A stretch of 32,000 nt of DNA from Candidatus Saccharimonadota bacterium (GCA_042852035.1 BAAFHK010000001.1:270001-302000); one strand, 5' to 3'. Counted from the stretch's first letter, positions 1 through 32,000 are shown. The notes: a model not told the origin generated them from the sequence alone. Translations and numbers: made by a program.

Positions 1-894
1 TCAGATACTGATAATGACGGATATGCTGACGGACTTGAGATAGAAAAGTCCTGGAATCCGCTTTCCCAAGAACTCTCTCCGGGACAGTATCCTTATGAAA
101 AAACAGAGGAACCAAGAGAAATTCCTCTCTCGTCTCAAGAGAGTTTTCATCCACAAAATAATAATCTTCTCCAAGATAGTGGTGTCTGGTGATCGGAATT
201 ATTTCATGAAGTACTGAGAAAGATTCGAATCTATATTGATGATGGAGAGAGTCCAATTTCTATTTTCCTTCTCTTAGTTTCTGTTGTGATTCTTTGATTC
301 TTTCATGCCCTTGGACCATGACATTCCAAATGAGTATTGGTATCGCAAATTATCAATGAAGATATGAGCTATATTCGTAGTATATTTTACTGTTGAGTTT
401 TTACTTTTGTACACCTTTTGGATATCGTAATTGTCGTTATACTCTCAAAATTCCTTTTTTCTTATATTGATTCGAGTGTATACCTTTCATATATTGCTCG
501 CTTGAGTACGGTACTTATTTTCTGAATTTCATTCTATTTGCTCTATCGTTCTGTCTCGAAATATTTTGTGAAAAATAGAAATTTATGAATAAATAACTCC
601 ACCCACCAGAAGGGCTCTATATTTCTTGCTATAATTACTGGTCTCACTCCATGCGCTTTTTGATGGAGTATTTTTCTTATGCTCTTTGCTCTCAAAAAAA
701 TTAATCTAGCACTCCCAATCCTTTCTGCTCTTGGTTTAGGTATTTTTCTCTGTCTCCTGAGTATTGCTACAGTAACCTGGTATTCGAGATCAAAAATATA
801 TAGTTTCTCTCCAAAAATTTCTCAGATATCACCAATTATTTCTTCCGTATTTCTCTTATTCATTGGATCAGGCCTTTTACTACAAAATTTTTAA
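1..894 (+). CDS. RcnA/NicO-family metal (Ni/Co) efflux-like membrane protein with hydrophilic N-terminal extension; 5' end outside window
   Basis: Frame 1 is open from base 1 to TAA 892-894 when TGA=Gly (several in-frame TGA). FFHALGPGHSKG at 298-333 matches the RcnA signature (E. coli RcnA LHGLEPGHSKT), and the Gly of PGH is a TGA. GLTPCAFG resembles RcnA GLIPCPAA. There are several hydrophobic spans. The first ~95 aa in the window are hydrophilic and carry a DTDNDGYADG Ca-binding-like motif. Confidence 0.6.
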
Positions 895-903
895 TTTTTT
901 TCT

Positions 904-3900
904 ATGAAAAAATTTCTCTCCCTTCTTCTTGTTCTCATTGTTTTAGTGTATAATACTTTTTTTATCACTTCGGCACTTCCGACAAACAATCTTTCATCAC
1001 CTTGGACGAGAGAAAAAGCAGAGCATCTTGCAAAGGCGGTCCTCTTTTCTGCAGATGCCAGGATGATAGATGATCTTTATAGTGCAGGAAGCGCAGCGCG
1101 TGCGGTCGATATTCTTTTCCCAAGTAGAGAGGGTCCTGATAGGACAGAATTTAAAAATTATCTCACTGCCTATACCTCTTCTGGATTTAATTGGGCGGAT
1201 GCAAACCACACAACAAGACTTTATCAGATTGTCTACGGAGCAGATCCCTATGAAGCGAAAAGAAAGCTTTTTTCACTATTCGAAGATATTTTTTCAGTGA
1301 ATAATGATAGCGGAAAAGATATAACTTTTAAAGATATTTCTGACTTACATACGCTCATATATGATAATATGTTTGGAGATTATCAGCTTCTAGTAAAAAA
1401 AGTTCTTTATAATAACTGATGAAGAGGGGATTACGCACTTTGAGCTTTTTTGGACCTTTTTAATCAAAATGACCCAGCCAAACCAAATGAGAACTACGCT
1501 CGTGAATTATTGCAGCTTTTTCTTATGGGGGAATATAAACCTCATGAATCAAAAGACAATGGTGATGTAAGGAATTACGAAGAATCTGATGTTCTGGCTC
1601 TTGCAAAGATACTTACTGGTCTCCGTTCTGTTCCTACAAGTCATGTTCTTTATTTTGATTCCACAAATCATTATGTTGCAAATCAGATTTCATTTTTAAC
1701 AGGTTCGATGTCTGAAACATTTCCATATTATAATACCTCTTCATGATTAATTGATCCAGTTAGTATTGTTGCTCCAGTAAATGCAAATAATTGACTTACA
1801 GATAATGTGATTGAGTATATTTTTGCTAAAAGATCAGATGCTATTGCTCTCTTTCTCGCTGATAGAATTGTACGATTTTATATTGAAGACAAGCCAAGCC
1901 GTGATAAGTTAGATTATGTGGCAGCGATTATTAAATCAAATAATTTTGATATCTATAATTCAGTAAAATCGATACTCACACTCGATATGATGTATTCAGA
2001 GACTTCGATGAATAGTATTCGATACAAAAATCCTCTTGAACTTAGTATCGGAACGATCCGATTTATGAGAAATAATGCATTTACTGGAATAATAATTGAT
2101 CCAAATCTCATAGATACGAATCTCCTTAGAAGATTGGGATGGACACCATATTTTCCAGGTAGTATTTTCGGAAGGGACTGATTTGATAATTCGATAAAAT
2201 GGTCGAGCACGAGTACGCTTTCTTCATGGATGAGTGCAACAAACATGTTTACATATCGAGTGAATGGTACTGGTGTGGTTGATTTTCTGTCCATCCTCTG
2301 AAATCAAAAAAAAGAAATTACGACGGAAGTTATCGGTGTCATGACACATGCAAATAATAGTTATTCAGGAGTACTTACTATCATTTCGTGAAGTCTTGAT
2401 CTTGGTGATCCAATAGTTACTTGAGTTTCACAGGCAAGGATTGCTCAATTTTCTTTCTTGGATGAAAACCTAAGTATCGAAGAACAAATAGTCAAAAATG
2501 GCTATCCACTCGATCCAGTTGTTGCCATAGAATGAGGAGAAAATCTCAATTTTATTACAAGTGAAATAACTTCATTTACTCCTGCGCTTCCGATACCTGA
2601 TGAGCCCTGAATGAATGAAGAAGCACCTATTCAAAGCGTTGAAATTAGCATATGAGATTCAGTGAATAACCCCTGAAATACTTGATCGGAATCCCTGATT
2701 ATTCCAGTTATAGAGTCAGAATCTATGACTGGAAGCTCCGTAATGTCTACTGAGATAGAGTCAGGGGGGACTATTAGTGGATCTGTCGAAGTTACCGAGA
2801 GGTCTAAAATTTTATCAATGGTACAAGAAGTCCAAGAAGCATCAACTGAAGTCACATGACAAAATATTTTGTCTTGAACGCTCCCAGAAGAATGAATTCC
2901 CTCATGAAGTGGAGAAGTTGTTGCCGTTTCTGAAGTATCAATACTTTCTGAAGAGAATACAAGATCTCTCTCTTGAATGACTGAAACAGGAGAGGTTATC
3001 AATACCGAACAATTAATAGGAAAGGTTGATTTTATTGATAGTACCTGATCATGAATTTGAGTCCAAACAGGGGGCATCCTCAATCTTTCTAACACGTGAA
3101 ATACGATCCCTGATTCATTATCAGGAAAGATAGATAATCTTCCTCAGTTAGAAGCCGTGACGATGGTATCGAATCTCACTGGATCAGTTACTCTCCCAAG
3201 CTTCCGAATTAACACAAATCTCTGAGCCATAACGCTTGGGAGTGGTTCATATGATGGACAAAAGAAGATCCTTACTGTTTTCTCTGGAACATTGCTCCAA
3301 GCTTCTGGTGCGATACTTCCGATATATTCATGAGTATTCCAGTTTTCTTCAGAATCTCGACTGATTGCTGATACAATCACTCCTGACATGATTATATCGA
3401 ATTATGAACAATATATTTATGGCGACTCTCGTATCCCAACTGACGCACGAGTATTTATGAGAGATTTTATTACACATGATTGAAGCGGTGCACTTATACC
3501 AGTAGCACCCTCGAATGCGGTATATTTCAATAAATATATTCGAGGACTTCTTTCGATTATGCTCTCACAGCCAGAATATGTCCTTCTTCGCTGATATGAT
3601 ATCCCTATTATAGAAAATCCGAATGAAACCAAATTTCTTGATTCCATTAAGGGAAAAATTTTCTTTATTGAACTGTATGGTGGAAATGATTACATGACGA
3701 GTATTATTCCAAAAGATGAGTATAGTACATATTTGGATTATCGATCCAATAGTTCTTGATCTATTGCTATTTCTGGGACAGGGCTTGTTGATATTGGTAA
3801 CTTTTACATGAATAGTGCTCTTGCATATGGAAATTCTGGTGCTACGGGATTCAAAGATCTCTATGATCAATGATATCTCAAAATTTTTAATAGAGTCGGT

Positions 3901-6900
3901 GGATATAAACACTCAAATGATCATGATGCAGCTGCGAAACAGATTTCATCGTATGATAGTACTACATCAGCATTTTCCGAATGAGTATTCGGGCATTTAG
4001 TAAAAAATGAACTTGAGAGTTCGCATACGATTTCTCTCGGGGCGAAGCTGCCAAATGTCTACCGTGCTGGTCACTATGTTAACCTTGGGTGAAATATCAT
4101 ACTTACAAACCCGCTCGATTCCTGAGGACAATGGAAATCGCATATGGATACGATGGTGACAATTACAAAAAATAGAGTTTATCCAGCTGATACGAGAAAC
4201 CTTTTTCAAGATGCAGGAAAAATCAGTGAAATTGGTAAGATTTCCGTTGCTCAATGATGAGCTCCAGGAGCAAGTGGAGATATGAATAGTGTCTTTAATT
4301 TTGCTAAAGTACTTATAAATAACAATATTTGAAGGACATTTTATATGTGATGAGCATGATGATATGATACTCATGGAAACCAATTTACATGACTCAATCA
4401 AAATCTTCGAACAGTGGGTAGTGCTGTTACAAAATTTTTTAATGATGTAAAAGATACGCAAGATGTAACAATCATAATCTTCTCTGAATTCGGACGTACG
4501 AATAAGACGAATGGAGATCTTGGAACTGATCATGGTGATGGAGGATGAATGTTCGTGCTCACATCGAATACTGATTTAAGGCAGCGCCTATCCGAAGGAA
4601 CGTATGGAAATATGTCTATTAAGTTTGCAAAGAATAACTCACTTGGTGTTGGTATTGATTATCGTTCGATTTATGGTTCAATTTTTCAATCCATATATTG
4701 ACTGAGTCCGATATCATATTTTGGTACGAATATTGATTTGAATCGAGATATTAGTCTCGAAAAGAGTAAGGTACAACTTCTTTCTTATTCATATCAGGCA
4801 TCATGACAAAACGTGATACTCAATGGTGAGTTTACGATATCAGGTTCTAATTATGATCCCGGAAAAGCATGATATACGAGGCTTGTTACTCATACGGGTT
4901 CTTCCAATCTAAAAATAACTCGACTGAGTGAAAAGTATACTCCAGAAGGATTTAAATATACCTTTCAAGCGAATCAAACTTCTAGCCCATATTTTACTAT
5001 TGAGTCATTCTCGAATCAGTATGCACTTTCTTCGTTTTCTGGAAATCTTGTTGATGCAACTCGGCCGATAATTCTTGGGAGTAATGTTCGTCATATTTCA
5101 CAATCCCAATCAAGTATTCTTCCAATTTTTTCAAATATTCAAGCCCCAGTGAAGCTCTCTGGGAGTGGGGTAATTCTTGAAAGTACAGGAAATACTATTG
5201 TGACACTTAGTGGAAGTTCTCTTCTTGCCCTTCATTTCGCTAGTGGTATAACACATGTTACTGATTTGACTACTACTTCATGATCTCTAGCTTGGAAATG
5301 AGGATTTATCCTTGGTGAAAAGGTAGATCGTGATTTATTTATTCCTGATAATGCTACTATAGTTTCTGAAAACAAAATTCTCCAAAGAGAATCCATCATC
5401 TCACTTATAAAAATAGGCGCAGATGTTCGTTGAATTGGTATGAATTTAAACCAACCAATTGGACTCGAGTTTCGATCACTCATTCCTAAAGAGAATTATC
5501 GTGTTCTCACAAGTCAGGATGGTATATCTTGGGATGATGTTGAATCGGGAAAAAGTTATACAGGAAGCACAAATGGGAGTATATACGTAGAGACGAGTCA
5601 TTTCTCATATTTTGCTGTAGTTCTCGCGAATGGTATTATTGAGAGTATCCCCACTTGTACAATCAGCGCAAGTCCAGTGAGCGTATTCAATTGATCAGGA
5701 ACTACGCTTTCTTGGGCTATTCAAAATACACTTACGGGTACGCTTAGCCCACTAAATAGCATCATTGGCACAGGTGGATTCCTTAATGTGATCCCCCCAA
5801 ATAATGCCACTACACGCTATACTATACAGGTATCAAATTCTGCAGGTGTGAATTCTTGTAGTGTGAGTGTTACTTCTATGGATGTACCACCACCTCCTCC
5901 TGATTCTCCATGATGTTTCATTACGGCTTCACCAACTACAGTACAAAATGGTAGTAGTTCGATAATTAGCTGGACCCTAATAAATACGCAGTCATGAGTA
6001 CTCAATCCAGGAAATCTTTCAGTAGGGATGACTTGATCGTTCTCATATACTCCTCCAGTTAATTCAAGTACAACCTTTGGTATAGATGTAAGAAATTCTA
6101 CGGGTTCATGATTTTGTAGCGTAGTAGTTAAAAGCAATACGGAAAATACAAATCCAGTGGTACCGAATGTTCCAAATATCTGACCCGGCTGACCAAGCTG
6201 ATTGCCTGATTCTAGTTCTTGTCCAATCGGACTTCACCTCTGTGATAAAAGCAACGGATTAATATCTCATCAATCTTCCCAAAGTGGGTATACTGATGTT
6301 ATCCCAGTGCAAGATAGTATTTTTGGCACAATGAATTATATAATTCAAAAATGGGAAAATTGAAGTGTACGTCTTATTTCTCCAGGACCATCAGTGCTTT
6401 CCAAGGAAATAATGAATCATCTTCAAAATGGGGTAACTTGAAAAATAACATCTCTTGGTAATGTAATAGACTACTTAAGGATGCAAAAAATCGGAAAGAA
6501 ATCTCAAACGCAGCGAGCTATAAATCGAACTATATTGGAAATCCAGACCAACTCTTCAAGATGACAAATTGCAGCTTTGCATGAAAAAACCCCAGAAGTT
6601 ACCGATTTTGAATCCAAAAATCCTGAAGTACTCAGCAGAGTTCCTATCGAATCGATGGGATTTGTACCCACAAAAGGTCAATTTTATGTTGCGGCTGAAA
6701 GCTCACTGAGGCTCCATACTACCCCAGTGGTTTCCGATCTTAACATTATCGACTATCTTCCAAGGAATACAAGAGTGGAATTACTCGAGACGAATGGGGA
6801 TTGGGCAAATGTGAAATTCGGATCACAAGAATGATATGTACGACAGTCATTTCTTCGAGAATTAAAGCTTGAAGACAGAATTCGATCATGAGAAGTAGAT

Positions 6901-7098
6901 TTTTCACTTGGTGAACATAAAAAAATAGATGTAAAGCAGAGCCTCTTTATTCGAGAAAAACAATCAACCACCTCTTCGATTCGATGAGTACTTTTTCGGG
7001 ATGATGTGGTGGTTATTCTTGATAGAGTTGGAAAGTGGGTAGAGATTCTCACGGATAAATATCACGGATTTATTAACAAAAAGTATCTCGTTGAATAA
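904..7098 (+). CDS. Giant (2,064 aa) secreted or surface protein: DUF1800-DUF1501 fusion followed by beta-rich region, two Cys-bracketed Ig-like repeats and two SH3b-like domains
   Basis: Frame 1 was checked codon by codon: there is no TAA/TAG between ATG 904 and TAA 7096-7098, and there are dozens of in-frame TGA. The N-terminus is signal-peptide-like (MKKFLSLLLVLIVLVYNTFFITSALP). DUF1800 hallmarks are NENYARELLQLFLMGEY (1486-1536) and the C-terminal SQPEYVLLRGYD (~3565-3600). DUF1501 hallmarks follow directly in frame: FFIELYGGNDYMTSIIP (~3661-3711), GGAGGYDTHGNQ (4348-4383, encoded TGA TGA GCA TGA TGA ...) and FSEFGRTNKTNGDLGTDHGDGGG (4480-4548). The repeats lie at 5650-6135 and the SH3b-like modules at ~6673-6855 and ~6931-7092. 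Confidence 0.8.
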
Positions 7099-7345: not shown

Positions 7346-7609
7346 ATGGAACACAAAGCAAAAAAATCCCTCATGGAAAAGTATGCGACACATAAGGGTG
7401 ATACTGGTTCTCCAGAAGTTCAAATCGCAATTCTCACGTCTCGTATAGAAAACCTTAAGTCTCACCTTGAGACTCACAAGCAAGATAATCACTCTCGTCG
7501 TGGTATCGTAATGATGGTGGCAAAACGAAGAAAGCTTCTAGACTATCTTAAGAGAAAAGATGAAGCTCGCTACAACGACCTTATAGGAAAACTTGAACTC
7601 AGAAAATAA
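7346..7609 (+). CDS. rpsO: 30S ribosomal protein S15
   Basis: The 87-aa ORF contains [57 protein letters not shown], which is colinear with bacterial S15. It ends in TAA. Confidence 0.95.
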
Positions 7610-7615
7610 TCAAAA

Positions 7616-7688: not shown

Positions 7689-8210
7689 ATGATTTCCTAT
7701 TTTCTCATTGGTGTCTCCATCCTTGTGACGCTTTATGTTTGGCAGAATAAAACACTGCTTATGTATGGAATGAATTGAGACTTTCTTAAGAAAGGGGATT
7801 ATGTCTCTTTTTGGAAGCAGGTACTTGCATTCCAATTCATACATGGCGATGTTTTACATATCGTCATGAATAGTTATTTTCTCTATTCAGCATGACCAAT
7901 TATTGAGGAGATACTTTGAAGCGCTCGATATGGTGTATTTTTTATTACCTCGACACTCTTTTCAGTGGCGATGCTTTTTTTCTTTGCTTCAAGACAAAAT
8001 ACTATAGGAATATCTGGTTTTTGTATGTCAATCCTATCGTATCTCTGGATTCTACTTTATTCTTCTTGATCATCATGAACAGAAGAGATAGGAAGACTCC
8101 TTATTATTAATATTGTTATTGGATTTCTTCCTGGTATTTCACTTGTTGGACATGTCGCAGGAGCTATTTGGGGTATTCTTTTCTGGATCATAACTCGAAA
8201 CTTTATCTAA
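7689..8210 (+). CDS. Rhomboid-family intramembrane serine protease (173 aa), paralog 1
   Basis: With TGA=Gly the translation gives FIHGDVLHIVMNSYFLYSAGPIIEEILG (rhomboid HxxxxHxxxN region), GISGFCMSILSY (GxSG catalytic Ser) and GHVAGAIWG (catalytic His), plus multiple TM spans. The ATG at 7689 is the most plausible start after the rpsO terminator. Confidence 0.75.
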
Positions 8211-8226: not shown

Positions 8227-8796
8227 ATGAAGATACATTCCTCAATTGCTTTTTATCCAAAAAGATATATTTCCCACTTTCTTATACTTTTATCAGTAAT
8301 AATAAGCATTTTTGGTTTTCTTATGCCAAATTTAGTGCAATTATTTTGACTTCATAGGATACAAGTTTCCTCTGATTCTCTTTTTTACGTTATTTGACAG
8401 ATTGTTTTATTTCAGTTCCTCCATGGATGATTCTTACATCTCTTTCTGAATTCTTACTTTCTTTACCAGGCATGACCAGAAATAGAATCTCGCATGCAAA
8501 GAAAAACTTTCTTTATTTTTTTCGCTTGATCTTCACTTTTTGTTGCTCTATCACTTTGGATTTTTTCGGGAAATGTTCTCACAGTTGGGATTTCTGGATT
8601 CTGTATGGCACTCCTGTCATATTTATATATGGATTTAAATCGCATCCGGCACCCGTATGCAAATCAAATTCTATTTATGCTCGTAGTAAATATTCTTATG
8701 TGACTTTATGGGAATATAAGTTTTGTTGGACATTTGAGTGGTGCTTTGTGGGGATTTCTCTGGTGGCAAATGAGGGAAAAAAGGAAGTTCCGATAA
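8227..8796 (+). CDS. Rhomboid-family intramembrane serine protease (189 aa), paralog 2
   Basis: Same motif set as paralog 1: FLHGGFLHLFLNSYFLYQAGPEIE, GISGFCMALLSY, GHLSGALWG. It starts 16 nt after paralog 1 and ends TAA 8794-8796. Confidence 0.75.
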
Positions 8797-8800: not shown

Positions 8801-9718
8801 TTAAATCTTTATCACAAGCATATTTTCGCGTTCATGAAAATTTGGAGATTCTTTCATGAGAATTGGGTAATTTTCCTTCTTTCCAGTGTAATAGAGGTGA
8901 AAATAATACTTTCTTGTTGTTTTTTTCTTCCGCAATTCCTCGAAAGATTTTTTCATCGCTAAAATATTGGAAAGTGAATCATCTGAGAATCCAATCGATA
9001 GCGGGAGATCATGCAGAAGGGTGTTTTTATAAATTTTATCTTCCACAAGAGAAAGAGCATGTTTGAGCGCGAAAACTTTTCTATCTGACATATTTTCAAC
9101 ACTATTTATATTAAGATATTTCGCTACGTGTGGATTTGATACAGGATAGTAGGACACAATCTGCTCAAAATAATATCTCAGAGCTTGATCTGGGCTTAAA
9201 ACGGTTTTGCTCTTTTGAAGTAGGGAGTAGAGATTTTGAATATTTTTTTGCTGTATTGCTTTTTCTTCTTGTGAAAGCAACATCTCATTGATAATCCAGA
9301 GAATACGAGCTAGATTATCCGGTCAATGGCCTCGACTTGTTATAATCGTCAGAAATCTTGCAGGAATAAGAAAAAGTTCTTTTAAACTCAAGAAACTTGG
9401 TGAGAGAGCTTTTTCCTTTACGGCTTGTTCAATATCTTCTTTAAGTTTATCTGGTCATCAATGCCTTGGATCGCTATGGTAGTCACGAAAGTGTATGAGT
9501 GAATCTAGTATATCATTATGCCAACGATATGGCGCTTCGGGTCATGATATAAGTTCTGGGTTTTTATCAAGGGTATGTCATGCGATTGCAACTTCTTCAC
9601 CAGACTTTCGGTCAATCACATATATTGGTGTTTCTGGCGCGAGGATATTCCCATCGAAGTCGAATGCTCCGAGGGCAATGCGTTCGTCAATGAGAAGTGA
9701 ATTGGCTAAATGTTTCAT
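8801..9718 (-). CDS. HAD-superfamily-like hydrolase (305 aa), function unknown
   Basis: ATG at 9718-9716; the frame was verified free of TAA/TAG down to TAA 8801-8803. AFDFDGNIL (~9641-9667) looks like HAD motif I (DxDG), ITSRGH like motif II, and GFSDDS like the acidic motif IV. The start overlaps the helicase stop by 13 nt (ATGAAACATTTAG). Confidence 0.5.
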
Positions 9719-12700
9719 GCTATGAGATCTTCTTCAAACATACGAATTCATTCAATCGTTTGAGGGTATTTTTTCACATCAGGAAAATCAAGTGTCTTTA
9801 TTTTTGACATTACTGCAATTATGAGCTTTTTCGTGCGTTCAATTTCTCATTCTTGTATATACTCAATAACTCGATGATAGCGATCTTCATCCCTATTTTT
9901 TTCTACAAAAAAAAGCTCGAAAGTTTTTTTCTCAAACATTCGCCATCGAGGAGACATTTCGAATAAAACGGCATAAAAACAGAGCTGAAGTCGATACTTC
10001 CATTGTTTGAGTTTTTCATATTCGGCTCATTTTAGAGTAAAAGAGTCGAATCCTTGTCCAGTCTTATAGTCCGTTATTATGAGGCTATCATCAGGTTTTT
10101 TTTCAATACGATCGATTTTTCATGTAATTTGCACATCTCAAAGAAAAGTTCATCAATGAGCTGCACGAAAATCATACTCAAGAAAGAGCTCTCAGTAAGA
10201 TTCCTTTTTCAGTTCTTCATAGAGCGATTCGAGATGAGTTTTTCATCGTTCGAGGAAATCAGCCTCAGTTTGGGAATCAAACCCTTCTTTTATAAAGTAT
10301 TCTTTGAAGCTTTCAAAAAGAATTCATTTATTGTAAGCCTTTTTTGACATAAAATCCGTAAAGAAATCTTCAAGGGCTTTATGTATCGCAGATCAATAGC
10401 TTGCATTCGCGCTTTTTGCTTGAGGAAATCGCAGTAAAGAATTGGCAACAAAATACTGTGGTCATGCATCAACAATATTAAGAAAATTCTGAAGAGCGGT
10501 TACATTCATTACAAATATTTTCTCTATTCGATCTCGTAGAAAATCGGATTCTTCTCCAAGGTATGGGAGATTAAAAAGCTCATTCTTTTCGACCTCGAGT
10601 GTCGTAATTATGTTTGGAAGAGGAAGAGTTGTGAGCTCTTCCCAATCATCCGATTCAACCTCTATGCAGGGCAAAGGCTCAAGAGGTTTTTCGTTTATAT
10701 TTTCCCTTGAGTAACTAATAGTCAGGGAGTCTTTTGCTCGAGTAAATGCTGTATAAATAAGTCTTTCTATGTCTTCATTATTATCACGTTCTGCTTCAAG
10801 GGGAAGATTCTTAGGAAGAGGTGATCATCCAAATTTTCATTGTTGATACTCGCTACGAGTGACACATGGAACATAAACACACTTCCATTCGAGTCCCTTG
10901 GCTTTGTAAACAGTGATAAGGTTTATTGCATTCTTGTCATTTCATATAATATGTGAAGTTTCTATATCAAGATTGTATTTTTCAATAAGAGACAGGAGAT
11001 GTATTGCATCGGAAATTTTTAAATATCCTTTATTTTTCTTTTGTGCTCGGACTTGCTCTATAAATACTCGAATATTCGATAAATGGCGTGCATATATTAT
11101 ATTCGGATTATTATGGTTTGATAATTGACCAAAAAAGTAATTATAAAAAGGTGAGATATAATTTTTTCTCCCCGATCCAAATAGATCAATTTGTAAGAGA
11201 TTTTCTTTTCCTTCATCATCGTATTCATCTGGAATTGGGAGAGTATTTGCTCCAGTAATAAAGTCGATAATATCCTCTAATCTTTCATTCTGTGATTTGA
11301 AATTCAGTTCTCGAAAAAAATTAGCTATGTCACGAAGATTTCCATCTTCATGTCGGGCAAGATTTTCTATCCAAGACTTGTTGCTTTCCTTGCGGGCATG
11401 GTATATATTTTTTGAAATACTCCAAAGAGTGAGTCGATGGATTCCAAAACAAGGGTGAGAAAGTATACTTAGGAGAAGTTCAGCATCCTCGGTTCTGTAA
11501 TCACCGTTGAGTGAGTGTACAAATTTGAGTATATTTATGAGAAGATGAATTTCATCGGACTCAAAAATTGATTCATCTTTTGAGAGGTTTATGGGAATAT
11601 TTTTTTCAAGGAGTCATTTTCCTATAAGTTCGAGAGTTTTATTTTTCTTCGTGATGATTGCAATTTCATTAGACTTTACTCATGTTTTTAGTATGGAGGC
11701 TATATCTTCTATAATCCAGGCTATCTCCTCAAGTTCATTTCTAAAAATATGCTTTTTTACAATACCTTCAGTACCTCTTACGGCTTCAAATTTTTTTACA
11801 GCTCATTCAAAAATATTTGCAATATTGTTCAATTCTGATTTAATAACTGTACGACTTTCACAAATAATTTCATTCTTGGAACGATAATTTTGCTCAAGAA
11901 TAATAAGTCGAGTATCACTATATGCATCATGAAAATCACGAATATTCTTCGTATTTGCTCACTGGAATTTGTATATAGATTGATCATCATCACCGACTGC
12001 AAAAATATTTGGATTCTCAGTGACTCAAAGTATCCCGTTAATGAGAGTCATTTGTGCATCATTGGTGTCTTGAAATTCATCAATCATTATGAATTGATAT
12101 TGTTCTGCGAGACTCATTCGAACAATATCATTCTCTCTGATAAGTCTTATAGATTCTAGAATCATATCAGAAAAATCAATGAGTCATCGCTTTTTGAGTG
12201 CTGATTGATATTCTTCAAAAATGCTTATGAGTGCCTCTTGTTTTTGGAGCTTTCCTGTTTCTTTGAGGTCTCTGGTATTTTTGTGATTTTTTATCGTCCA
12301 AGAATCTCTCCAGCTATTCATGAATTTTGTGCTTCCATCACCTTCATAGAGTTCCCATATTTCATTCAGACTTCTTTGGAGAATGGTTTCAAATCGTTCG
12401 TAGGTTCCTATAGTCTTTTCAATAACGGACAATTCTTGAACCTTATTTGTTAATTCTTCGAATAACTTAATCTTTTTTTCCTTCTCTTCTTTCTTTTGTC
12501 ATAGTGCATCAATTTGTAAAAAATAGGCTTCAATGATGGGTGAAATTTTTTCAATGGCTTGTCTATTTTTTTCGAGGATAGCCTTATAAAAAGACGGTGT
12601 AATGCCTCATCTTTTGAGATTATCAATCGTTCACTGTACTTCTTTTATTGTATCACTTGCTCGGAAACCTGGCTTATATGGATTATCCCATGAAAGTTTT

Positions 12701-13130: not shown

Positions 13131-14519
<1,389 letters not shown>

Positions 14520-21864: not shown

Positions 21865-22854
21865 ATGCGTTCACTTCTTGTTCTTGTTTCTACTATTCTT
21901 GTTGCCTGTACTTGAGCATATATTTTTTCTGTAAATAGTGACGAACTTGCAGGAGCCCAGCTTATCACAAACTGTGATGGAACCCAATTTATCAGGACTT
22001 CACCCGGAGAGCTCCGAGTGCAGATTGTAGCGAAGAATCTTCCTGGCTGTATCGGTAAGGCTTCATCTTGATCTACTTCTGTGGTAGTATCTTCTGGAAC
22101 AACTCTTACCGTAGTAAAAGATGTTACAAACTGTAATGGTCTCCGCGTTATTTCTTATTCTGATGGAAGCTATAAGAGTTTCTATGCAGAAAAAAATCTT
22201 CCAAATTGTATCCGAGCAGGATATGTTCCTGAGGTAAATACAGGTTCACGTATTGATCTTTCTCATGGACCTCTTCTTGATCTTGCTTCCACAGAAATCG
22301 TTAATTATCGAGCACAACTCCTAAAGGACCAAGGCATTCGATTCGCTAATGCCGTACGAAGTGCTCGAATCCGAAGAGCAGCTACAAAACAGTCAAATAC
22401 TGAAGCAATCCTCATGAGAAACGATGCCGTAGTCGTAAATGGAGATGTTACAGGTTGGACAAAAGTGACAGGTGCTGAACTTGAGGTAACAAGCACTCAG
22501 GAAAATACCGTAGAGGCTAATACTGATGGGAAAGCGTCTGGGTATACTGCAGGTCGACTTCTTCGTGATCCGAATATTTCGGATTTAGTAAAAATCGAGC
22601 AAGCAGACCATGCTTACTGGAGTGATATTGCTTATACAAATGTAGAAAAGTATGTGAATATTCGTTCAAATCCAAACTATGAAGCCCCAATAGTTACGAC
22701 TCTCGGAAGAAATTACCCACTCTTTGTAATTTCTACAGTAGATAACTGGTCTCTTGTGCGAAATGATTCTGGAACTATCCGTGGATACATCCGTTCAGAT
22801 TATCTTCGTATTGAAAAAGTCCAGCGTGTTGATACTTCAAATGGAGTAAAATAA
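21865..22854 (+). CDS. Putative lipoprotein with C-terminal SH3b-like domain (329 aa)
   Basis: MRSLLVLVSTILVAC has a lipobox-like LVAC. The ORF continues through two TGA codons into track ORF 22081-22854. The C-terminus YVNIRSNPNYEAPIVTTLGRNYPLFVISTVDNWSLVRNDSGTIRGYIRSDYL fits the bacterial SH3 (SH3_3) pattern. Confidence 0.7.
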
Positions 22855-22918: not shown

Positions 22919-23314
22919 ATGAACGACCTAAAAAATCTCTATATTTTCCAAGGGTTCTCAGAAGCAGAAGTAGCATATTTTCTCCTCATGAGCCAGACAC
23001 AACTTCGTAAGCAGGGTGATCGAATTATAACAGAAAGAGAAGAGTCAAATGGATGTGCTTATTATGTGACTCGATGAGTAGTAAATGTTACTCGTGATTG
23101 AGTAGAGCTTGCAAATCTTGGTCCTGGGTCATTTTTCTGAGAAATTGCTCTTATTACTGATGAGCCACGTACGGCAACGGTTGTTTGTCTGGAGGACTGT
23201 GAGCTTCAAGTCTTTATGAAGGATGATTTTATTACTCTTTTGAAGCGTAGCGTTCATTCTGAGGAGATGCGAAATGAGGTAATGCGAAGAATCAAAGACA
23301 GGGTGGGGCACTAA
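22919..23314 (+). CDS. Standalone cyclic-nucleotide-binding (CAP/Crp effector-type) domain protein (131 aa)
   Basis: LYIFQGFSEAEVAYFL...GDRIITERE..., then GPGSFFGEIALITDEPRTATVV (the FGE Gly is TGA 23138-23140). This is the canonical cNMP-binding phosphate-binding cassette. No DNA-binding or other output domain follows. Confidence 0.75.
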
Positions 23315-23338: not shown

Positions 23339-24244
23339 ATGTCAATGCAAGCACCCGAATGGCGAGTAGACAGCTCAGGTAGTATCCAATCTTTGTCTTC
23401 GCAAGACTTCAGTTCTCTTGCCTTAAGATTGGTCGATGCTGATATAGTAGAGGTTATATCAATGTGGAAAAATCCTGATTTCCTTGGGCGTATTTTTATG
23501 CAGCAGGCCGATCGTTTAGGATTTACTGAAGAAGAAAAAATAGCTTTATTTTGATCGGTTACGCGAGATGTGATGTCTCAAATGGTTTCTTTCAGTCTCC
23601 ACAATGAAGGATATGCTCCATCTGATCAATCAAAGTTAGGTGCTGTGTTGCTAGAAAAGCTACCACACACCATAGAAAGTTATGAAGAATTACGTTCTTC
23701 TTTATTGAATGCAAAATGAATTATAGAAATATATCCAAGCCGTACAGATCGAGTATCGCATATTTATTCAGTGCTTCATCATGAAATAAATCACCTCTGT
23801 ATGATGCTGCTCTATATTTATAGAAATGAAAAGGAGTGAGTATCAATTCAAGAAACAGTTGATGCTATGTCATCATCTTTTTTTCATGAAGTTACCGAAA
23901 CTCTTGCTTGGCTAGATGGTGGTCAAGTTCCAAATTTTGAGCTTCTCCCTCCCGAGTATGCTGAGAAATATGCTTGATGGAATGAATGATGAAGATATGA
24001 TCTCTCAGTCGACTACGATAGAGCAAAACTTCGATCATATCGCATTCATGTACTTCAATTAAAAATTCATAACTTGAGTGATACAACTTCTTCTATGTAC
24101 CAGGACTGGTGTAGGAAAATACGCGATATTCTTTTTGCTTGATTGCGTAATGCTGAGTATCTAACACTTCTTGATGAATATCTCGAAAATAGATGAAATA
24201 AATGAAATCGAGAATTAAGGGATACTCTCTTAAGTATTCACTAA
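23339..24244 (+). CDS. Hypothetical protein with HExxH motif (301 aa)
   Basis: The frame was verified open with TGA=Gly from ATG 23339 to TAA 24242-24244. VLHHEINHLCMM (HEINH at 23780-23794) is the only recognisable motif. The gene starts 24 nt after the cNMP-binding gene. Confidence 0.55.
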
Positions 24245-24285: not shown

Positions 24286-25929
24286 TTAAAATCCCATACC
24301 ACCCATGCCACCCATTCCTCCTCCACCATGAGGATGGTCATGTTCCTTTTCTGGTTTTGGAGCATCCACGATGAGTGCTTCTGTTGTGAGGAACATTCAG
24401 GCGATTGAGATAGCATTCTCGAGAGCACATCGTTCAACTTTTGTTGGGTCAATTATACCTGCCTTTACGAGATCCTTATATTCGTCCATTGCAGCGTCAT
24501 ATCCATAGCTTGCATCTTTATTATTTGCAACTTCATTCACCACTACGGCTCATTCTTTCCCGGCATTATCGGCAATTTGGCGAACAGGGTAGCTTAGGGC
24601 ACGTGCTACGATATTTGCACCAACTTGTTCTGCAGGCGTGAGTTTAACACCTTCGATAGCTTTTGCTGCCTTGAGAAGTGCCACCCCACCACCAGCAACG
24701 ATTCCTTCATCGACAGCAGCTTTTGTAGCATTGAGTGCATCTTCGATGCGAAGTTTTTTCTCTTTCATTTCGACTTCACTTGCCGCACCAACCTTGATGA
24801 CCGCAATTCCTCAGGCAAGTTTTGCGATTCTTTCAGCGATTTTCTCTTTATCATAATCACTTTTCGTAACTTCAATCTGTCGACGAAGTTCATTTACGCG
24901 ACCTTCGATGAGATGTTTTTCTCCACCACCACCGATAATTGTTGTATTTTCTTTTGTTGAGACGACCGCTTTTGCATGACCAAGGTGCTCGATGCTTGCA
25001 TTTTCGAGTTTATATCCAGTTTCCTCTGTTATGAGAGTTGCTCCAGTGAGGATAGAGAGATCCTTGAGTATATCTTTCTTTCTGTCTCAGAAACCAGGAG
25101 CCTTGATGCCAAGTACAGTAAGAACCCCTTTGAGTTTATTAAGGATAATTCCTGTGAGCGCCTCTCCGTCAATATCATCTGCGATGATGACGAGTTCGCG
25201 ACGACCACTCTGGGCAAGTGATTCGAGTACTCCTATGATATCTTTTAGACTTGAAATTTTTTTATCAGTAATAAGGATATGTGCATCAGAGATGCGAGCT
25301 TCCATCTTCTCTCCGTCGGTAATCATATATGGAGAAACATATCCGTTCTCGAACTTCATTCCTTCAGTGACTTCGACTTCGAGTCCAAAGGTTTTTCATT
25401 CTTCGACCGTAATAACCCCATCTTTTCCAACTTTTTCCATCGCATGAGCGATGATCTGTCCGACTTCCGCATCCTGTGCTGAGATAGTTGCTACTTGCTC
25501 GATTTCTTCTTGAGTACCGAGAGTTTTACTCATGTTCGCGAGTTCAGCGACGACGAGAGAACCAGCTTTCTTCATTCCATTTTTAAGTTCTATGGCATTG
25601 ATTCCGGAGCGTATTTCACGAAGCCCTTCCTTTACCATAGCATAGGTGAGAAGGGTAGCAGTGGTTGTTCCATCTCCGGCAGCATCATTGGTTTTGCTTG
25701 CAGCCTCTTTGATGAGTTCAGCACCCATATTCTCGATTTTATCCTCGAGTTCGATTTCTTTGGCGATCGTAACACCATCATTGGTGACCTGTGGCGCGCC
25801 GTATGATTTACTAAAAATCACATTGCGACCCTTTGGTCCCATAGTGGCAGTGACAGTCTTTGCGACCTTCTCCATACCGGAGAACATTTTGAGACGAGCT
25901 TCGTCTCCGAAGTGAATTTGCTTTGACAT
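24286..25929 (-). CDS. groL: Chaperonin GroEL (547 aa)
   Basis: [39 protein letters not shown]...[12 protein letters not shown]. Five in-frame TGA codons (25396, 25087, 24811, 24550, 24397) fall at, for example, [25 protein letters not shown] and SIA-G-MFLTTE. The C-terminus is [13 protein letters not shown]. Stop is TAA 24286-24288. Confidence 0.97.
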
Positions 25930-26135: not shown

Positions 26136-26201
26136 TTTGGAACAATGAGCAATAGCTTTTGGAACAATGAGCAATAGCTTTTGGAACAATGAGCAATAGC
26201 T
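26136..26201. repeat. Three perfect tandem copies of a 22-bp unit in the groES-groEL spacer
   Basis: TTTGGAACAATGAGCAATAGCT occurs at 26136-26157, 26158-26179 and 26180-26201. The copies are head to tail with no spacers. Confidence 0.95.
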
Positions 26202-26280
26202 GATGCAATCCATACAAGAGAATTTATTTTTCGAATTGCAGAGGCTGTTTGAAGAATTCGTTCCGAATGAAAGATGGTTT

Positions 26281-26595
26281 TTAACTAATCTTCGCTAGTA
26301 TATATTCGTAGGCTACAATCTTGTAAGTAGTATCTCCGACTTTTACATCATCACCCGAATATTGTCCACTGATGACTCGATCTCATTTTTTGAGGTCGAT
26401 TTTTATTTCTACACCATTTTTATCGACGCGACCAGGTCCACATGAGATAACCTCATAGAGGCTTGGGCGTTCTTTATTTGCGCTTTCAGGGAGGATTATC
26501 CCACTCGCAGTAATCTTATCGGCTTCGACAGGTCTTAGAAGGACACGGTCAGAAAGGGGAGTGATCTTTTCGATCATGTCATGAGTGATACTCAT
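26281..26595 (-). CDS. groS: Co-chaperonin GroES (104 aa)
   Basis: ITPLSDRVLLRPVEADKITASGIILPESANKERPSLYEVISCGPGRVDKNG...IKIDLKKGDRVISGQYSGDDV. One TGA codon (26383-26385) falls at the conserved G of KxGD. Stop is TAA 26281-26283. Confidence 0.93.
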
Positions 26596-26680: not shown

Positions 26681-26714
26681 TTAGCACTTAATTTATTGAT
26701 GTGCTAAAATTATA
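26681..26714 (-). promoter_or_regulatory. CIRCE-like HrcA operator plus adjacent -10 box upstream of groES
   Basis: TTAGCACTT-N9-ATGTGCTAA (26681-26707) compared with the CIRCE consensus TTAGCACTC-N9-GAGTGCTAA. On the groES strand a TATAAT (26714-26709) lies immediately upstream of it. I found no convincing -35. Confidence 0.65.
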
Positions 26715-26725
26715 CGAGTAAATCA

Positions 26726-26750
26726 TTAAAAAATCCGCTCATAAGCGGAT
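26726..26750 (-). terminator. Rho-independent terminator of the HD-domain gene
   Basis: ATCCGCT / CATA / AGCGGAT (26733-26750) overlaps the stop codon. On the minus strand it is followed by a T-run. Confidence 0.65.
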
Positions 26751-27382
26751 TATACTGCGTGCATTGTATGCATTTCTTTTTGTGGAACCTCACATCCAAT
26801 CATTGGGAGAAACTTTTCCATATGCTCGATATCCTTCATTTGTTGCTCATGTCGTTCTCGTTTTGCGGTTGAAGTATGGAATTTATATTTCGTAAGAAGC
26901 GTGTAGACGAATTGCCAATAGGCGCAATCTGGTATATCTGCTTTCCCAATTATTTTTAGCTCATCATAATAATCGAGAGAGTAGTAGAATTCTTCTCGGG
27001 TTCATATGTTATCGAGGTCGGCATCTTGAATGATTTCTTCTAGGAGGGTGTGAGGGGTTGAAAAAAGTACGGTTGCCATAATAATGCTCTCGATCTTTTC
27101 AATACGATTTTCTGGATGCCCTTTTTCCATAAGCCACTTACGTGCGATGCGGGCTCAGATGTGTTCATTTTTTTCATATTGCTCTATAAAGCCTGTATCA
27201 TGAAAGAGGCATGCTATCTGTAGGTCTTCGAGATCTTCTCAGGTGACGTTTTCTGCTAAGGCTAGATATGTGGCGCGATTAAAAACTCCTAGAGTATGTT
27301 CCGGATTGTGATAGGGGTAATTTTTGCATTTTTCTTCGAGGAGGCTAAAAGTATAATTTCTTACCTGTTCAACGAGTGACAT
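26750..27382 (-). CDS. HD-domain phosphohydrolase family protein (210 aa)
   Basis: YHNPEHTLGVFNRATYLA...LQIACLFHDTGF...IIQDADLDNIG follows the H...HD...D pattern of the HD superfamily. The frame was verified from ATG 27382 to TAA 26750-26752. Confidence 0.75.
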
Positions 27383-27566: not shown

Positions 27567-29306
27567 ATGAAGATTTCGTATAGACTTCTCTTAGTTCTAG
27601 TTCTTGCTATTGGTTCTGGGCTTTATATTTTCCCTTGGGATAAGCTTGGGATTACTCCTCCTGAATGGGTTAAACCATACAAACTTGGTCTTGATCTCAA
27701 TGGTTGAGTTGAACTTGATTATAAGGTCGATCTTACCGAAGTGAGAGCACAAAGCGGACAAATTAATGAGGCAAATATTATTGATAGTCTAAAAAATATT
27801 ATTGACAGACGTGTACGTTCACTTGGTCTTGAGGAGCCTACAATTCAGACAGCGCAATATGGTCCTGGAGAATCACATATTATTGTTCAGATTCCAGTAA
27901 AAGATTATGGGAATATTTCGACAGAGGAAAAAATGCTAAAGAATGCCGAAGACATAAAGAAAGCGAAAGAAACAATCGGAAAAGTCGTAAAACTAGAATT
28001 TAAAGAACAAAAAAAGGATATTACTGATGAAGATAAGAAGCTTCGACAAGACATTGCAAATAAGGCAAAGGCAGAACTTGCCACAACTCCATTTGCTACT
28101 ATCGGTCTCAAATATCGTGATCAATATGAAAACGTTGCCTATATTTCTACTAGCTGATCTCTTGTTCCTCAGGCACAATTTGATGGAGTAGAAAAGGTAA
28201 CAAAATTTCCATTTATCTCGGAGGTGTACTATTCTCCAGGCGAAGAAATGGTAACTCTAGATACCGATGGAAAGCCTACGACAAAAAAATGACCTGGAGG
28301 CTATGCAATCACTCAACTTGAGTCAATGAAAGAAGTTGATGTTCCAGCTGTTGGTACTGGATCAGCAACTAAGAAAAAGGAATATGTGTACTCCGTTCTT
28401 TATATAGATGAACGTCCAAGTACTTGGACTGTTGCGAAAACGAGCGATGGAAAGTCACTGAATGATAAATATCTCACCCGAGCTGGAGTTTCATTTACGC
28501 AGGCTTGATATCCACAGGTGGATCTTGTTTTTAATGATGAAGGAAAAACGATATTTGGTGATCTTACAAAACGCCTCATAGGAAAGCAGATTGCTATATT
28601 TGTCTGAGGAGAGATGCTTACAGCTCCTACTGTTCAGGCGGTTATTTCAGATGGTAGAGCGGTAATTACTGGAGATTATACGATTGATTCAGCTCAGGAT
28701 CTTGCCAATGGTATTAATACCGGTATTGTCCCGGCTCCAATTTATCTCACAAGTGAAAGAACAATTGATGCAAAAATAGGTCGTGATGCACTCAGGGAGA
28801 TTCTCTATGCTTGAATTATAGGGCTTGGTGCAATTATTTTTCTTCTTGTATATTTTTACCACGTCGGAGGACTTCTTGCAGGAATCGCTCTTATTGTTTA
28901 TTCAATGATTCTTATCGCTCTTGTAAAATTCACGAATGTAACACTTACTCTTGCTTCAATTGCTTGAGTTATTCTCTCAATAGGTCTCGCTATCGATGCA
29001 AATATTCTTATATTTGAACGTATGAAAGAGTCGCTACGAGCAGGTCATCTTATGGATAAGGCTATATCTACTGGATTTGCGAAGTCTTGGACTGCAATCT
29101 GGGATTCCCATATTACTTCTCTTACTTCAGCAGTAATTCTTTATGTATTTGGTATATCACTTATAAAGGGTTTTGGTCTTATGTTAGGTCTCGGTATTGT
29201 TCTTTCTCTTTTTACAGCAATGTGGGTTTCTCGAGTGCTTATTGCCGCAGTAGGGAAGACTCGTATTGGTGAGAATGCATGATTATTTGTGGGTCATAAA
29301 GACTAA
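27567..29306 (+). CDS. secD: Protein translocase subunit SecD (579 aa)
   Basis: Five track ORFs in one frame are joined by TGA codons. There is an N-terminal TM (LLLVLVLAIGSGLYIF) and a large periplasmic domain (LGLDLNGGVELDYKV; IAIFVGGEMLTAPTVQAVISDGRAVITG). The C-terminal TM bundle carries ILSIGLAIDANILIFERMKE and FGLMLGLGIVLSLFTAMWVSR. The ATG at 27567 is preferred over the GTG at 27525. Stop is TAA 29304-29306. Confidence 0.88.
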
Positions 29307-29307
29307 T

Positions 29308-29646
29308 ATGTCACTCCAAATCCTTGAATTTACGAGCTTAGGAAATCCCGAAGATGAAGACTTTTTACGGTGGAAACATCGTTATGATAAATTTGGATTG
29401 GAAGTTGCAAAAAAAATCAAGGATTCCTGACGGAGTACACATGTCCTTCTCTCAAATATAAATTCTCTGAGGTCTGTACTTGGAAGAGGCTATAAATTGA
29501 AAAAGTATAATAATTGAATGAAGTTTTTAGATTCTATGGAGGAACTTTATAATCGAGTACGACTTCCTGAAGTGAGAGTGGTAGTAATTGACGCGGTGTA
29601 TTGACTTATTGAGGTTTCAGAAAGTGTGAATGAAGTATTATGATAG
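29308..29646 (+). CDS. Hypothetical protein (112 aa)
   Basis: ATG lies 1 nt after the secD stop. The frame is open with four TGA codons to TAG 29644-29646 and overlaps the murI start by 7 nt. The protein is hydrophilic with no recognisable motif, so it is not SecF. Confidence 0.4.
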
Positions 29647-30335
29647 TCTGATTTTTTGATTCATGACTGGGTGGAAAGGTGGTAATGGAGGAATTCAAGA
29701 GTCTCCATCCTCATTTAGAGGTAAGGCTTTATATGGATCGCCAAAATGCTCCTTATGGAGGCAAGTCTTGAGATGACATTCGCGCACTTACTAGGAAGGG
29801 AGTTGAAAGACTCTTTGATGAAGGATGTGATGTTGTTATTCTTGCTTGTAATACTGCGAGTGTTCATGCTCTTCGATGGCTCCAAAAGGAAGTCTATCCA
29901 GAAAAACATATTTTATGAGTAACAGTACCATGAGCGGAGGCCGTAGTAGAGGCTGGATATAAGAAAATCTGAGTCCTTGCCACCGAGGCAACAGTAAGGA
30001 CTCGAATGTATAAGGAGCGAGTCAATATACTCGATGATTCCGTCCTTGTTGAAGAAGTGGCAGCGCCATGACTTGTGCCACTTATAGAAAAATGAGTCAC
30101 AACGGGTCCTGACTTAGAGAATCTTCTTCGAGAGTATCTTTCGCAATTTTCTCCAGATATTGAGGCGTTAGTCCTAGGATGTACACACTATCCCATCATC
30201 GCTGATACGGTGCAAGTGATATGGTATAGCATGTTTCATAGGCAACTGTCTCTTATTGATCCAGGAGTGGAGGCTGCCAAAAAGTTTGCGATTTGGTGAG
30301 CTCGTCATTATTCATCATTCGGAAGTCACTTCTAA
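29640..30335 (+). CDS. murI: Glutamate racemase (231 aa)
   Basis: MIVGFFDSGLGG, DRQNAPYGGKS, VVILACNTASVHAL, VLATEATV and LVLGCTHYPII are the canonical MurI motifs, including both catalytic Cys contexts. Several conserved Gly are TGA. Stop is TAA 30333-30335. Confidence 0.88.
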
Positions 30336-31971
30336 CATAACTTCTCAGGTCTTCAACTAGATATCAGATTGCTATTCATACCTGAATTGGTTTTGCATCT
30401 GGAAATATAGCTTGTATTGCATCTTCCCTCCCTTTAATGCTAAAGAAGAAATGTTTCGTGTTTGGAGATTTATAGGCAATAAGGTATCCTTTTGAGATAA
30501 GATCCCAGAATAAGTCTCAGAAAGTTTCATGTCAAAGCGATTCTAGATACGGAACTCCTACTCGATTCGCAATAAGCTTATAAAGCGCACTTGGCTGGCG
30601 GTATTTTGGGCCACGAAAAAATGCATCAAGGAGTCATCGAAGTTTATAATAAGGATCTTCCTTTTTTTTGTTTTCAGCTTCAGACTCGGATATGAATTGT
30701 ATCTCTGCACCATATGGAGTATTTCAGAGTTTCATAAAGCCACTCAGGCTCATATTTGTAAAATTCTCATCGGTCATTTTTGACTTTGTTTCATTGATTG
30801 CGATAGGATTTTTTGTGAGGTTTTCTGTCAACCATCATGAATCACTTACGGCTCATTTGTTTTTTAGGACGTAGCCAAAGTCAGGCATAAGATTTGAAAA
30901 TACCGTAATGAGTTCCTTTTTTTCAGCATCACTTGTTGCATTCGGGTAGATGATATTCATGCCGATAATATCCCTCATGGCATCTACATTATTATACTGC
31001 TTCTTCTGCCACATTTTTTGGAGTATGCTTTCAGGTGTCTTTACTCTCCAGTCGATTTTATATACCTTCCCTTTGATGTGTAAGTCAGCATGATATATGA
31101 CGGCACCCGTGATGTGATCTTCGATTATTACATTTTCTATTTTAATTCAGGCCTTTTTTAGTGCAATCTCCATCTCGCCAATATTTTTTTTCGCATTTCG
31201 ACAAAGCTCCTCAATCTCAAGAACTCTTGGCCATGCAAAAAATGATTGTATAACCATCCATGCGTCTTCAACTTTCTCAGGGTCATCGAACATTCTATTG
31301 AGTACTCGAGTACATTCTTTAATGTCTTTGATGTGTTCTAGGGGTCCGAGTTCAAGTCAAAAAACTTTTCCAAGGTAATGAAGAAGTCTTGGAAATACGG
31401 ATGTAAAATATTTCGGACAATCTTTTTCTTTACAGTCATCGATGTTATTCGTAAGTCAAGAAATTATGAGTTTTTCTATCGCTTCTCAACGAGGCTTCTT
31501 TTTAAGTTTCGAGAATGAGTATCATGAACCATCAAGAATGGATACTTGTCTCGATGCAAATGCAATGAGAGAGGGATTATAAAGACTTGCTCTTAGTTCC
31601 TCTTGAAGTTTTTTTCACGTGTCTTCTGGTCTTCATCGTATGAGAAGTGTTTCCATGATATCTGCAATATTTGTTTCATCGATGTAGAGTGATCGAGAAT
31701 CATCAGGTTTGGTCTTTCGATGTTTATTGAGTTTGTTTAGAAAATCTCACCACGCACTCGGGTATTTGCTAAAAAATGACTTGAGTGATTTTGCTTTTGG
31801 AAGATAGGTTTCAAGTAAGACATGGAGATCTCCTCTATTTCTGAGTTCAACTAAATTTTTTACGGTATCTTCGACACTTCTTACAAGGTTTGTAGAGCTA
31901 TTTCTTGTGCTATTTCTCGAGGCATTTATATCTCCAAGACTAAATCGGTTGAGAGTGGAAAGAGCATTCAT
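30253..31971 (-). CDS. Large hypothetical protein with divergent RelA/SpoT-like (RSH nucleotidyltransferase) core (572 aa)
   Basis: All lines were scanned: no TAA/TAG between ATG 31971 and TAA 30253-30255, with many in-frame TGA. The ordered motifs WRVKTPESILQKM (31012-31050), MRDIIGMNIIY (30946-30978) and GAEIQFIS (~30688-30711) resemble the RelA_SpoT pattern RxKxxxSxxxK ... DxxGxR ... ExQxRT, but with substitutions. The N- and C-terminal regions are unrecognised. The 3' end overlaps the murI 3' end by 83 nt. Confidence 0.5.
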
Positions 31972-32000
31972 AATTGATTTCTAAAAAAAATTCTATATAG

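Follow-up and report, generated by a model that had tools for sequence, protein, structure and literature searches.

We analyzed a 32,000-bp stretch of DNA (BAAFHK010000001.1:270001-302000, GC 37%; hereafter the window) for its genes and for the meaning of the codon UGA (TGA in DNA), which an earlier note on the same stretch had read as glycine (Gly) throughout. Under the standard code, stop-to-stop open reading frames (ORFs) were at most 306 amino acids (aa) long, and those of ≥100 aa totaled 6,510 aa. Dropping TGA from the set of stops extended the longest ORF to 2,068 aa and the total to 23,217 aa. The same operation on TAA or TAG left the longest ORF at 306 aa, with totals of 12,589 aa and 9,803 aa, respectively. 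Only the removal of TGA restored long frames, so the effect on ORF length was specific to this codon.

With TAA and TAG as the only stops, the window contained 23 non-redundant, tightly packed genes that comprised 10,061 codons and occupied ~94% of the sequence (Table 1). TGA occurred in frame 228 times in 22 of these genes (2.3% of codons; 223 times if g06 is given the ATG start of its relatives). Neither TAA nor TAG was found inside a gene, though both were frequent in the other two frames. The genes ended in TAA (19) or TAG (4) and none ended in TGA, which bears out the earlier statement that only TAA and TAG terminate genes here. The C-terminus of AhcY (...HYRY) coincided with that of its PDB homologues. 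At the curated Pfam threshold, 18/23 genes had a match, and in many the match ran the full length of the family through the TGA codons (AdoHcyase 1-299/299, Cpn60 1-489/490, and EPSP_synthase 3-416/417, also AAA_2 and UvrD). Translation table 11 would split genes into 2-62 pieces each and leave rpsO alone intact. The claim that every conserved gene is broken by TGA was thus accurate for 22 of the 23 genes and failed for rpsO, the TGA-free gene for ribosomal protein S15. As had been stated, annotating the window with the standard code would be an error, and table 4 would be wrong too. The genes are all of housekeeping type, and we therefore regard the window as chromosomal DNA of a cell, not of a phage. 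An Rfam search of the window gave no match that reached threshold.

Table 1. Genes predicted in the window with TAA and TAG as the only stop codons. Pfam, family match at the curated threshold, with the span of the family model where given.
Gene	Product	Coordinates	Strand	In-frame TGA	Remarks
g01	membrane protein gene, 3' part (runs off window start)	1..894	+	8	ends in TAA; no Pfam match
g02	2064-aa DUF1800 + DUF1501 + C-terminal SH3 protein	904..7098	+	61	Pfam
g03	rpsO (ribosomal protein S15)	7346..7609	+	0	sole gene without TGA; Pfam 1-81/81
g04	rhomboid-family protein	7689..8210	+	5	Pfam; codon-aligned to L001-L003
g05	rhomboid-family protein	8227..8796	+	6	Pfam; codon-aligned to relatives
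g06	conserved protein, function unassigned, 305 aa	8801..9718	-	5 (short form)	ORF reaches 9850; start chosen to match the 305-308 aa of relatives
g07	UvrD-type helicase + C-terminal PD-(D/E)XK nuclease	9706..13086	-	28	Walker A 12988, 12994; one in motif III; Pfam
g08	S-adenosylhomocysteine hydrolase (AhcY)	13131..14519	-	6	13743, 13161 and four more; Pfam 1-299/299
g09	PfkB-family kinase	14572..15510	-	7	Pfam
g10	acyltransferase_3 membrane protein	15682..16806	+	9	Pfam
g11	MurA	16996..18258	-	10	Pfam 3-416/417
g12	OmpR-type response regulator	18347..19012	-	7	Pfam
g13	ClpC	19212..21794	+	11	Walker A 19983, 19992; GYxGYxEGG 21144, 21156; Pfam
g14	secreted SH3-domain protein	21865..22854	+	2	Pfam
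g15	cyclic-nucleotide-binding domain protein	22919..23314	+	3	23138 in FGE; Pfam
g16	protein without assigned function	23339..24244	+	9	
g17	GroEL	24286..25929	-	5	25087, 24811, 24397 and two more; Pfam 1-489/490
g19	GroES	26281..26595	-	1	Pfam
g20	HD-domain protein	26750..27382	-	3	Pfam
g21	SecD	27567..29306	+	8	Pfam
g22	small protein without assigned function	29308..29646	+	4	start set at the ATG directly 3' of the secD stop, as in the 108-aa gene of L008
g23	glutamate racemase (MurI)	29640..30335	+	9	Pfam
g24	572-aa protein, weak RelA/SpoT-like region	30253..31971	-	16	RelA_SpoT Pfam match below threshold

We compared the predicted proteins with experimentally solved homologues after translating TGA as X, which presupposed no meaning for the codon. 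All 16 TGA coordinates given earlier hold TGA in the frame and on the strand of the gene named and agree with the X positions. In GroEL, the sites in APGF-x-D and KLA-x-G aligned with Gly in 3/3 references each, and the remaining sites read G/G/D (KE-x), G/A/A (SIA-x), and S/S/A (VEE-x). TGA positions in ClpC corresponded to 6 Gly, 1 Asn, 2 Asp, and no tryptophan (Trp) in Bacillus subtilis ClpC (3j3t). The six Gly sites were two in Walker A, one each in AEGLA and IGAGGAEG, and two in GYVGYDEGG, and the Asn and two Asp fell at three variable sites. The six TGA sites of AhcY, each compared with two references, gave 11 Gly and 1 Ala, with Gly in both references for GDVGKGC and for the GP(Y/F)KP tail. 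MurA, with ten TGA sites and 19 PDB cells, gave 13 Gly and no Trp. Against PcrA (1pjr), the helicase had Gly at both TGA sites of the Walker A motif AGAGSGKT and at the one in motif III (YRWRGA). The TGA in the FGE of the cyclic-nucleotide-binding domain (23138) aligned with Gly in 3/3 PKG domains. The earlier observation was confirmed with two small corrections, one on rpsO (above) and one on DUF1501 (below).

The DUF1501 domain of g02 contains the run TGA TGA GCA TGA TGA (4348-4362), which reads XXAXXYDTH. The last two TGA codons correspond to the conserved GG of GG(Y/F)DTH, with Gly in 14/15 and 15/15 sequences. Two distant homologues (23-24% identity) had G/G in the second of these columns and G and D in the first. 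The columns of the first two TGA codons are variable (G/Q/V and G/A/N/S), so the proposed placement on invariant glycines is borne out for two of the four codons only.

One site in MurA was considered as a counter-example to Gly. The TGA at 17263-17265 (residue 332) occupies the Asn position of the FENRF motif, which is Asn in both aligned PDB MurA references. The motif reads FEGRLNW in the lineage; 8 related loci encode the Gly at this site by GGA, GGT, or GGG, and 3 others, like the window, by TGA. We rejected it as a counter-example and attribute it to a lineage-specific Asn-to-Gly change.

To score all 64 codons alike, we made a Codetta-style tally over 2,049 aligned positions, with GroEL (9c0d), ClpC (3j3t), AhcY (3d64), and MurA (5ujs) as references. 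The 30 cells for TGA held Gly 21 times (70%), Ser 3, Ala 2, Asn 2, Asp 2, and Trp 0. The Gly fractions of the four ordinary Gly codons were similar, at 76% for GGA, 80% for GGC, 72% for GGG, and 70% for GGT. TGG aligned with Trp in 6/9 cells, and all other well-sampled codons behaved as in the standard code. In these alignments, which the earlier note had proposed for the same four proteins, TGA fell neither mainly on Trp nor mainly in non-conserved columns. About 30% of TGA positions lay in variable columns, and GGN codons did so just as often. We left the 120 closest ClpC proteins out of the tally because they belong to the same recoded lineage, and the residue at their TGA sites (a mix of Trp and Gly) mirrors the table used by the gene caller.

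Codon pairing gave a second view of UGA that required no translation table, since protein-guided alignments were read at the DNA level. We used five related contigs, fetched via the TGA-free S15 and relatives of ClpC: L001-L003, L007 (ClpC 82%), and L008 (ClpC 92%). L007 and L008 were syntenic with the window over ~20 genes. The TGA codons of the window had 316 partners in these contigs, of which 131 were TGA, 143 GGN, 0 TGG, and 42 other codons. Conversely, TGA in the relatives stood opposite GGN in the window in 104 pairs. TGG paired with Trp codons in 138/153 cases and with TGA in none. UGA is thus evolutionarily interchangeable with GGN. Codon composition pointed the same way. GGN codons made up 5.2% of the total and GGN plus TGA 7.5%, a normal Gly content, and TGG contributed 0.93%, a normal Trp content, which TGA would have raised to 3.2%. 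Structure residues, codon pairing, and composition agree as three independent lines of sequence evidence and support the earlier reading of UGA as Gly throughout, and they exclude Trp.

We hold with very high confidence that the window is part of the chromosome of an uncultivated Gracilibacteria-type bacterium (in NCBI naming), from the Patescibacteria/Candidate Phyla Radiation (CPR) clade that uses translation table 25, and that UGA is an ordinary Gly codon with only UAA and UAG terminating genes. UGA supplies ~30% of the Gly codons in the window. By extension from published work on the clade, a dedicated tRNA-Gly with anticodon UCA would decode UGA, and it would be expected to keep the bacterial glycyl-tRNA synthetase identity set G1:C72, C2:G71, G3:C70, and U73. 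Release factor 2 (RF2) is the only release factor that reads UGA, and it would have been lost. Both the tRNA-Gly(UCA) and the absence of RF2 are established for Gracilibacteria and Absconditabacteria (PMC8629427; PMC4032931; bioRxiv 10.64898/2026.05.24.727570), with experimental, proteomic support from a BD1-5 bacterium (PMC4032931). Pfam matches of the window genes included no prfB (RF2), within the 32 kb of the genome that were covered.

Three points were weighed against this explanation. About 30% of the TGA positions aligned with residues other than Gly (Ser, Ala, Asn, Asp). Since this rate equals the background of GGN codons, we do not take the non-Gly share as evidence against Gly. Second, the alignments report the predominant meaning of UGA, beneath which low-level ambiguous decoding or occasional termination could still take place. 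Third, ARAGORN found no tRNA gene in the window, the S15-anchored contigs, or 31 Gracilibacteria/SR1 ClpC loci (~0.5 Mb); the same program detected tRNAs in Firmicutes loci used as a positive control.

Public metagenome data did contain candidate decoders. A structural DNA pattern combining the Gly identity set with the UCA anticodon matched 69 stretches, 20 of which were tRNAs with anticodon UCA according to ARAGORN. These tRNA(UCA) genes were 71-76 nt long and carried Gly acceptor identity, and none was tied to the window organism. Solitary low-GC tRNA(UCA) genes adjoined ORFs that stay open only when TGA is read as sense: 516 aa with 15 TGA (L124), 349 aa with 12 (L139), 386 aa with 7 (L123), and 492 aa with 29 (L149). 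This shows that a tRNA(UCA) decoder and TGA recoding co-occur in public metagenome data, without a link to the window organism.

Other loci matched by the same pattern had distinct contexts. In one group (L124, L126, L136, L141, and L148), tRNA(UCA) genes with Gly identity formed part of large tRNA arrays (as many as 27 tRNAs within 7.8 kb) or adjoined a terminase-like ORF containing 15 TGA codons in frame. Phages are the probable source of this group, either infecting table-25 hosts or sharing the code of such hosts. Six further loci (L090, L095, L115, L127, L140, and L143, from BNJS/BNJT and ERZ1370068 contigs, some in records of 0.6-2.8 Mb) carried a Thr(UGU)-Tyr(GUA)-[odd tRNA]-Thr(GGU) cluster. 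The odd third tRNA fits the pattern of Gly identity and UCA anticodon, and ARAGORN calls it '???' with a 2-nt anticodon, 'tc'.

Use of UGA for Gly differed among genes. TGA accounted for 30% of Gly codons overall, and its share was gene-specific and reproducible across the relatives L007, L008, L009, and L018. Within the window, it was 0-16% in S15, GroEL, GroES, SecD, and AhcY versus 45-62% in the helicase, MurI, g06, g16, and g24. With relatives included, the share was 8-11% for GroEL in all five genomes, 3-16% for AhcY, and 0/4 for S15, and 26-56% for the helicase, MurI, and g24. The gradient was repeated in the four relatives with Spearman coefficients of 0.36-0.79. For a set of genes picked after seeing the data, the odds ratio was 0.29 (Fisher p = 5e-10).

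One account of this gradient is that UGA is mainly Gly yet partly ambiguous or costly, through U34 wobble onto UGG or a scarce tRNA, and that selection bars it from highly expressed genes. The potential for UGA/UGG wobble ambiguity in this clade was pointed out by Shulgina and Eddy (PMC8629427). Against a cost, the 'highly expressed' set was chosen post hoc, from only 23 genes whose expression was assumed, and the gradient may instead arise if ancestral GGN is conserved more strongly at constrained sites when mutation is AT-biased. We consider a cost possible, with our judgment leaning somewhat to the other side; it is a refinement of the assignment to Gly and not a competitor to it. The more specific suggestion, that UGA-Gly is not yet neutral and is kept out of the most translated genes while making up about half of the Gly codons in genes of low expression, is one we make tentatively and regard as rather doubtful. 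If it were true, decoding by tRNA-Gly(UCA) would be slow or error-prone (e.g., by U34 wobble onto UGG), and selection would limit the spread of a captured stop codon. The literature we searched held no description of gene-dependent UGA use in table-25 bacteria.

Reassignment of UGA to Trp (table 4) resembles the Gly code in several respects. The same codon is captured in low-GC DNA, and tables 4 and 25 give the same signals in ORF length and coding density. The mechanism expected from the literature is likewise the same, with an anticodon-UCA tRNA and RF2 lost. Its users include the Mycoplasmatales and several insect endosymbionts (Hodgkinia, Zinderia, Nasuia, and Stammera). Proteins of the present lineage are already in public databases as code-4 translations, and UGA-to-Trp is known within Patescibacteriota, in some Minisyncoccia (bioRxiv 10.64898/2026.05.24.727570). 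The meaning of the codon separates the two: support for Trp in the window was zero, with Trp in 0/30 PDB cells against 21 Gly and TGG in 0/316 codon pairs against 143 GGN. Table 4 would also place Trp in Walker A motifs, FGE, and APGFGD, and would raise Trp to 3.2% of codons, against 0.93% from TGG alone. We consider this reading highly improbable.

A standard code in which the TGAs are real premature stops, in pseudogenes or from sequencing or assembly errors, would account for the fragmentation of every gene but rpsO under table 11. Decay of this sort should not be confined to one codon, yet TGA alone interrupted the genes, and TAA and TAG never occurred in frame in the family-matched spans though they were common out of frame. 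There were no frameshifts, the affected genes include the essential GroEL, MurA, SecD, and ClpC, the TGAs sit on conserved Gly, and the same TGA pattern recurred in independent assemblies from different samples. We give decay or error almost no credence. Weakest of all, and in our view next to impossible, is a standard code with TGA as a selenocysteine codon or subject to context-dependent programmed read-through, which shares in-frame UGA read by an anticodon-UCA tRNA and the 'SeC' label that ARAGORN assigns to such tRNAs by default, but cannot accommodate 228 TGA in 22/23 genes, orders of magnitude beyond any selenoproteome, aligned with Gly and not Cys or selenocysteine, without a Cys codon among their partners, with no selenocysteine insertion sequence (SECIS) needed, and with the candidate decoders found elsewhere having normal length and Gly acceptor identity in place of the long-arm selenocysteine architecture.

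The Gly code of the window agrees with table 25, the Candidate Division SR1 and Gracilibacteria code (Campbell et al. 2013 and Rinke et al. 2013, as cited in PMC8629427), in its reading of UGA, its two stops, its otherwise standard codons, its low-GC CPR DNA, and the Gracilibacteria names of its nearest genomes. We found no difference in the code itself; the organism matched no GTDB species representative searched. Absconditabacteria (SR1), a sister clade with the same UGA-to-Gly change, have in addition reassigned CGA and CGG to Trp, a reading that some Gracilibacteria may share for CGG (PMC8629427). We therefore examined the Arg codons. CGA was used 134 times (133 per 10,000 codons, versus <37 in Absconditabacteria; PMC8629427) and aligned with Arg in 16/29 PDB cells and 184/230 codon pairs. 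CGG was very rare in the window, as it is in Absconditabacteria, with 7 codons (7 per 10,000). CGG in the relatives stood opposite CGT, CGA, AGA, or CGC in the window at 29/33 sites and never opposite TGG, so CGA and CGG both behaved as Arg and not Trp. AGG paired with Arg and Lys codons. We rejected further reassignment of CGA, CGG, or AGG, which aligned or paired mainly with Arg. Judged by these alignments, UGA is the sole reassigned codon, and the code is plain table 25 and not the Absconditabacteria variant.

Lineage was assessed from record titles and ClpC identity and not from a phylogeny. In a ClpC scan of one genome per GTDB species, the nearest genomes had 76-81% identity and were mostly titled 'Candidatus Gracilibacteria bacterium', with some titled 'uncultured Candidatus Peribacteria' or 'Patescibacteria group'. 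NCBI-named Gracilibacteria dominated the ClpC protein matches as well. ClpC of SR1/Absconditabacterales had 47-49% identity over a partial match only. Gene order over ~20 genes was common to the window and L007/L013 and L008. The source had been placed in Gracilibacteria or Absconditabacteria; this holds and can be narrowed to the Gracilibacteria side, as the ClpC identities and the unreassigned Arg codons both argue. The table-25 clade corresponds to GTDB class JAEDAM01 (bioRxiv 10.64898/2026.05.24.727570). No GTDB representative searched exceeded 81% ClpC identity and the best metagenome contig reached 92%, which points to a probably undescribed species within a table-25 lineage that is itself known.

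The UGA-to-Gly change has been known since 2013, and Codetta and gTranslate now detect it routinely (PMC8629427; bioRxiv 10.64898/2026.05.24.727570). The window adds one more probable new species and opens no new question. Its main value is practical, for the correct annotation of a table-25 lineage, and the code also serves as a lineage marker that assigns the contig to the Patescibacteria clade with table 25. Table 4 is the fallback of coding-density heuristics and yields full-length proteins, but with Trp for Gly in Walker A and other catalytic Gly motifs. Such mistranslations of the lineage are already public. For example, P0001 and other relatives of ClpC show Trp at Walker A and GYxGYxEGG positions that are TGA in the DNA (window 19983-19994 and 21144-21158), and among the 120 closest ClpC sequences, 7-54 show Trp at each conserved-Gly TGA site. 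These would mislead structure prediction, the building of hidden Markov models, and phylogeny.

Several features of the locus are unrelated to the code. Gene g02 encodes DUF1800 (residues 45-464) and DUF1501 (~1150-1220) in one protein, whose middle and tail are long and rich in Ser and Thr and which has an SH3 domain at the C-terminus. An identical S15 protein was present on 9 public contigs, where hrcA, Band_7, and CofD lie upstream of rpsO in the place taken by g02 in the window, so gene order breaks at g02. A sequence resembling CIRCE (controlling inverted repeat of chaperone expression), TTAGCAC-N13-GTGCTAA, occurs at 26681-26707, upstream of groES by ~90 bp, and departs from the consensus at 3 positions. 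There was no hrcA in the window, and relatives encode HrcA adjoining rpsO. The groES-groEL spacer (25930-26280) is unusually long at 351 bp, and the spacers of relatives are ~320 bp without sequence conservation. The window spacer includes, at 26136-26201, a perfect tandem repeat of 3 x 22 bp (TTTGGAACAATGAGCAATAGCT on the + strand) that relatives do not have. We discarded an 81-aa ORF in this spacer (25968-26213, - strand) as spurious, since it had no family match, was not conserved, and overlapped the tandem repeat. Finally, the convergent genes murI (+) and g24 (-) overlap at their 3' ends by 83 nt (30253-30335); in L008 the overlap measures 128 nt, and in L007 it measures 9 nt.

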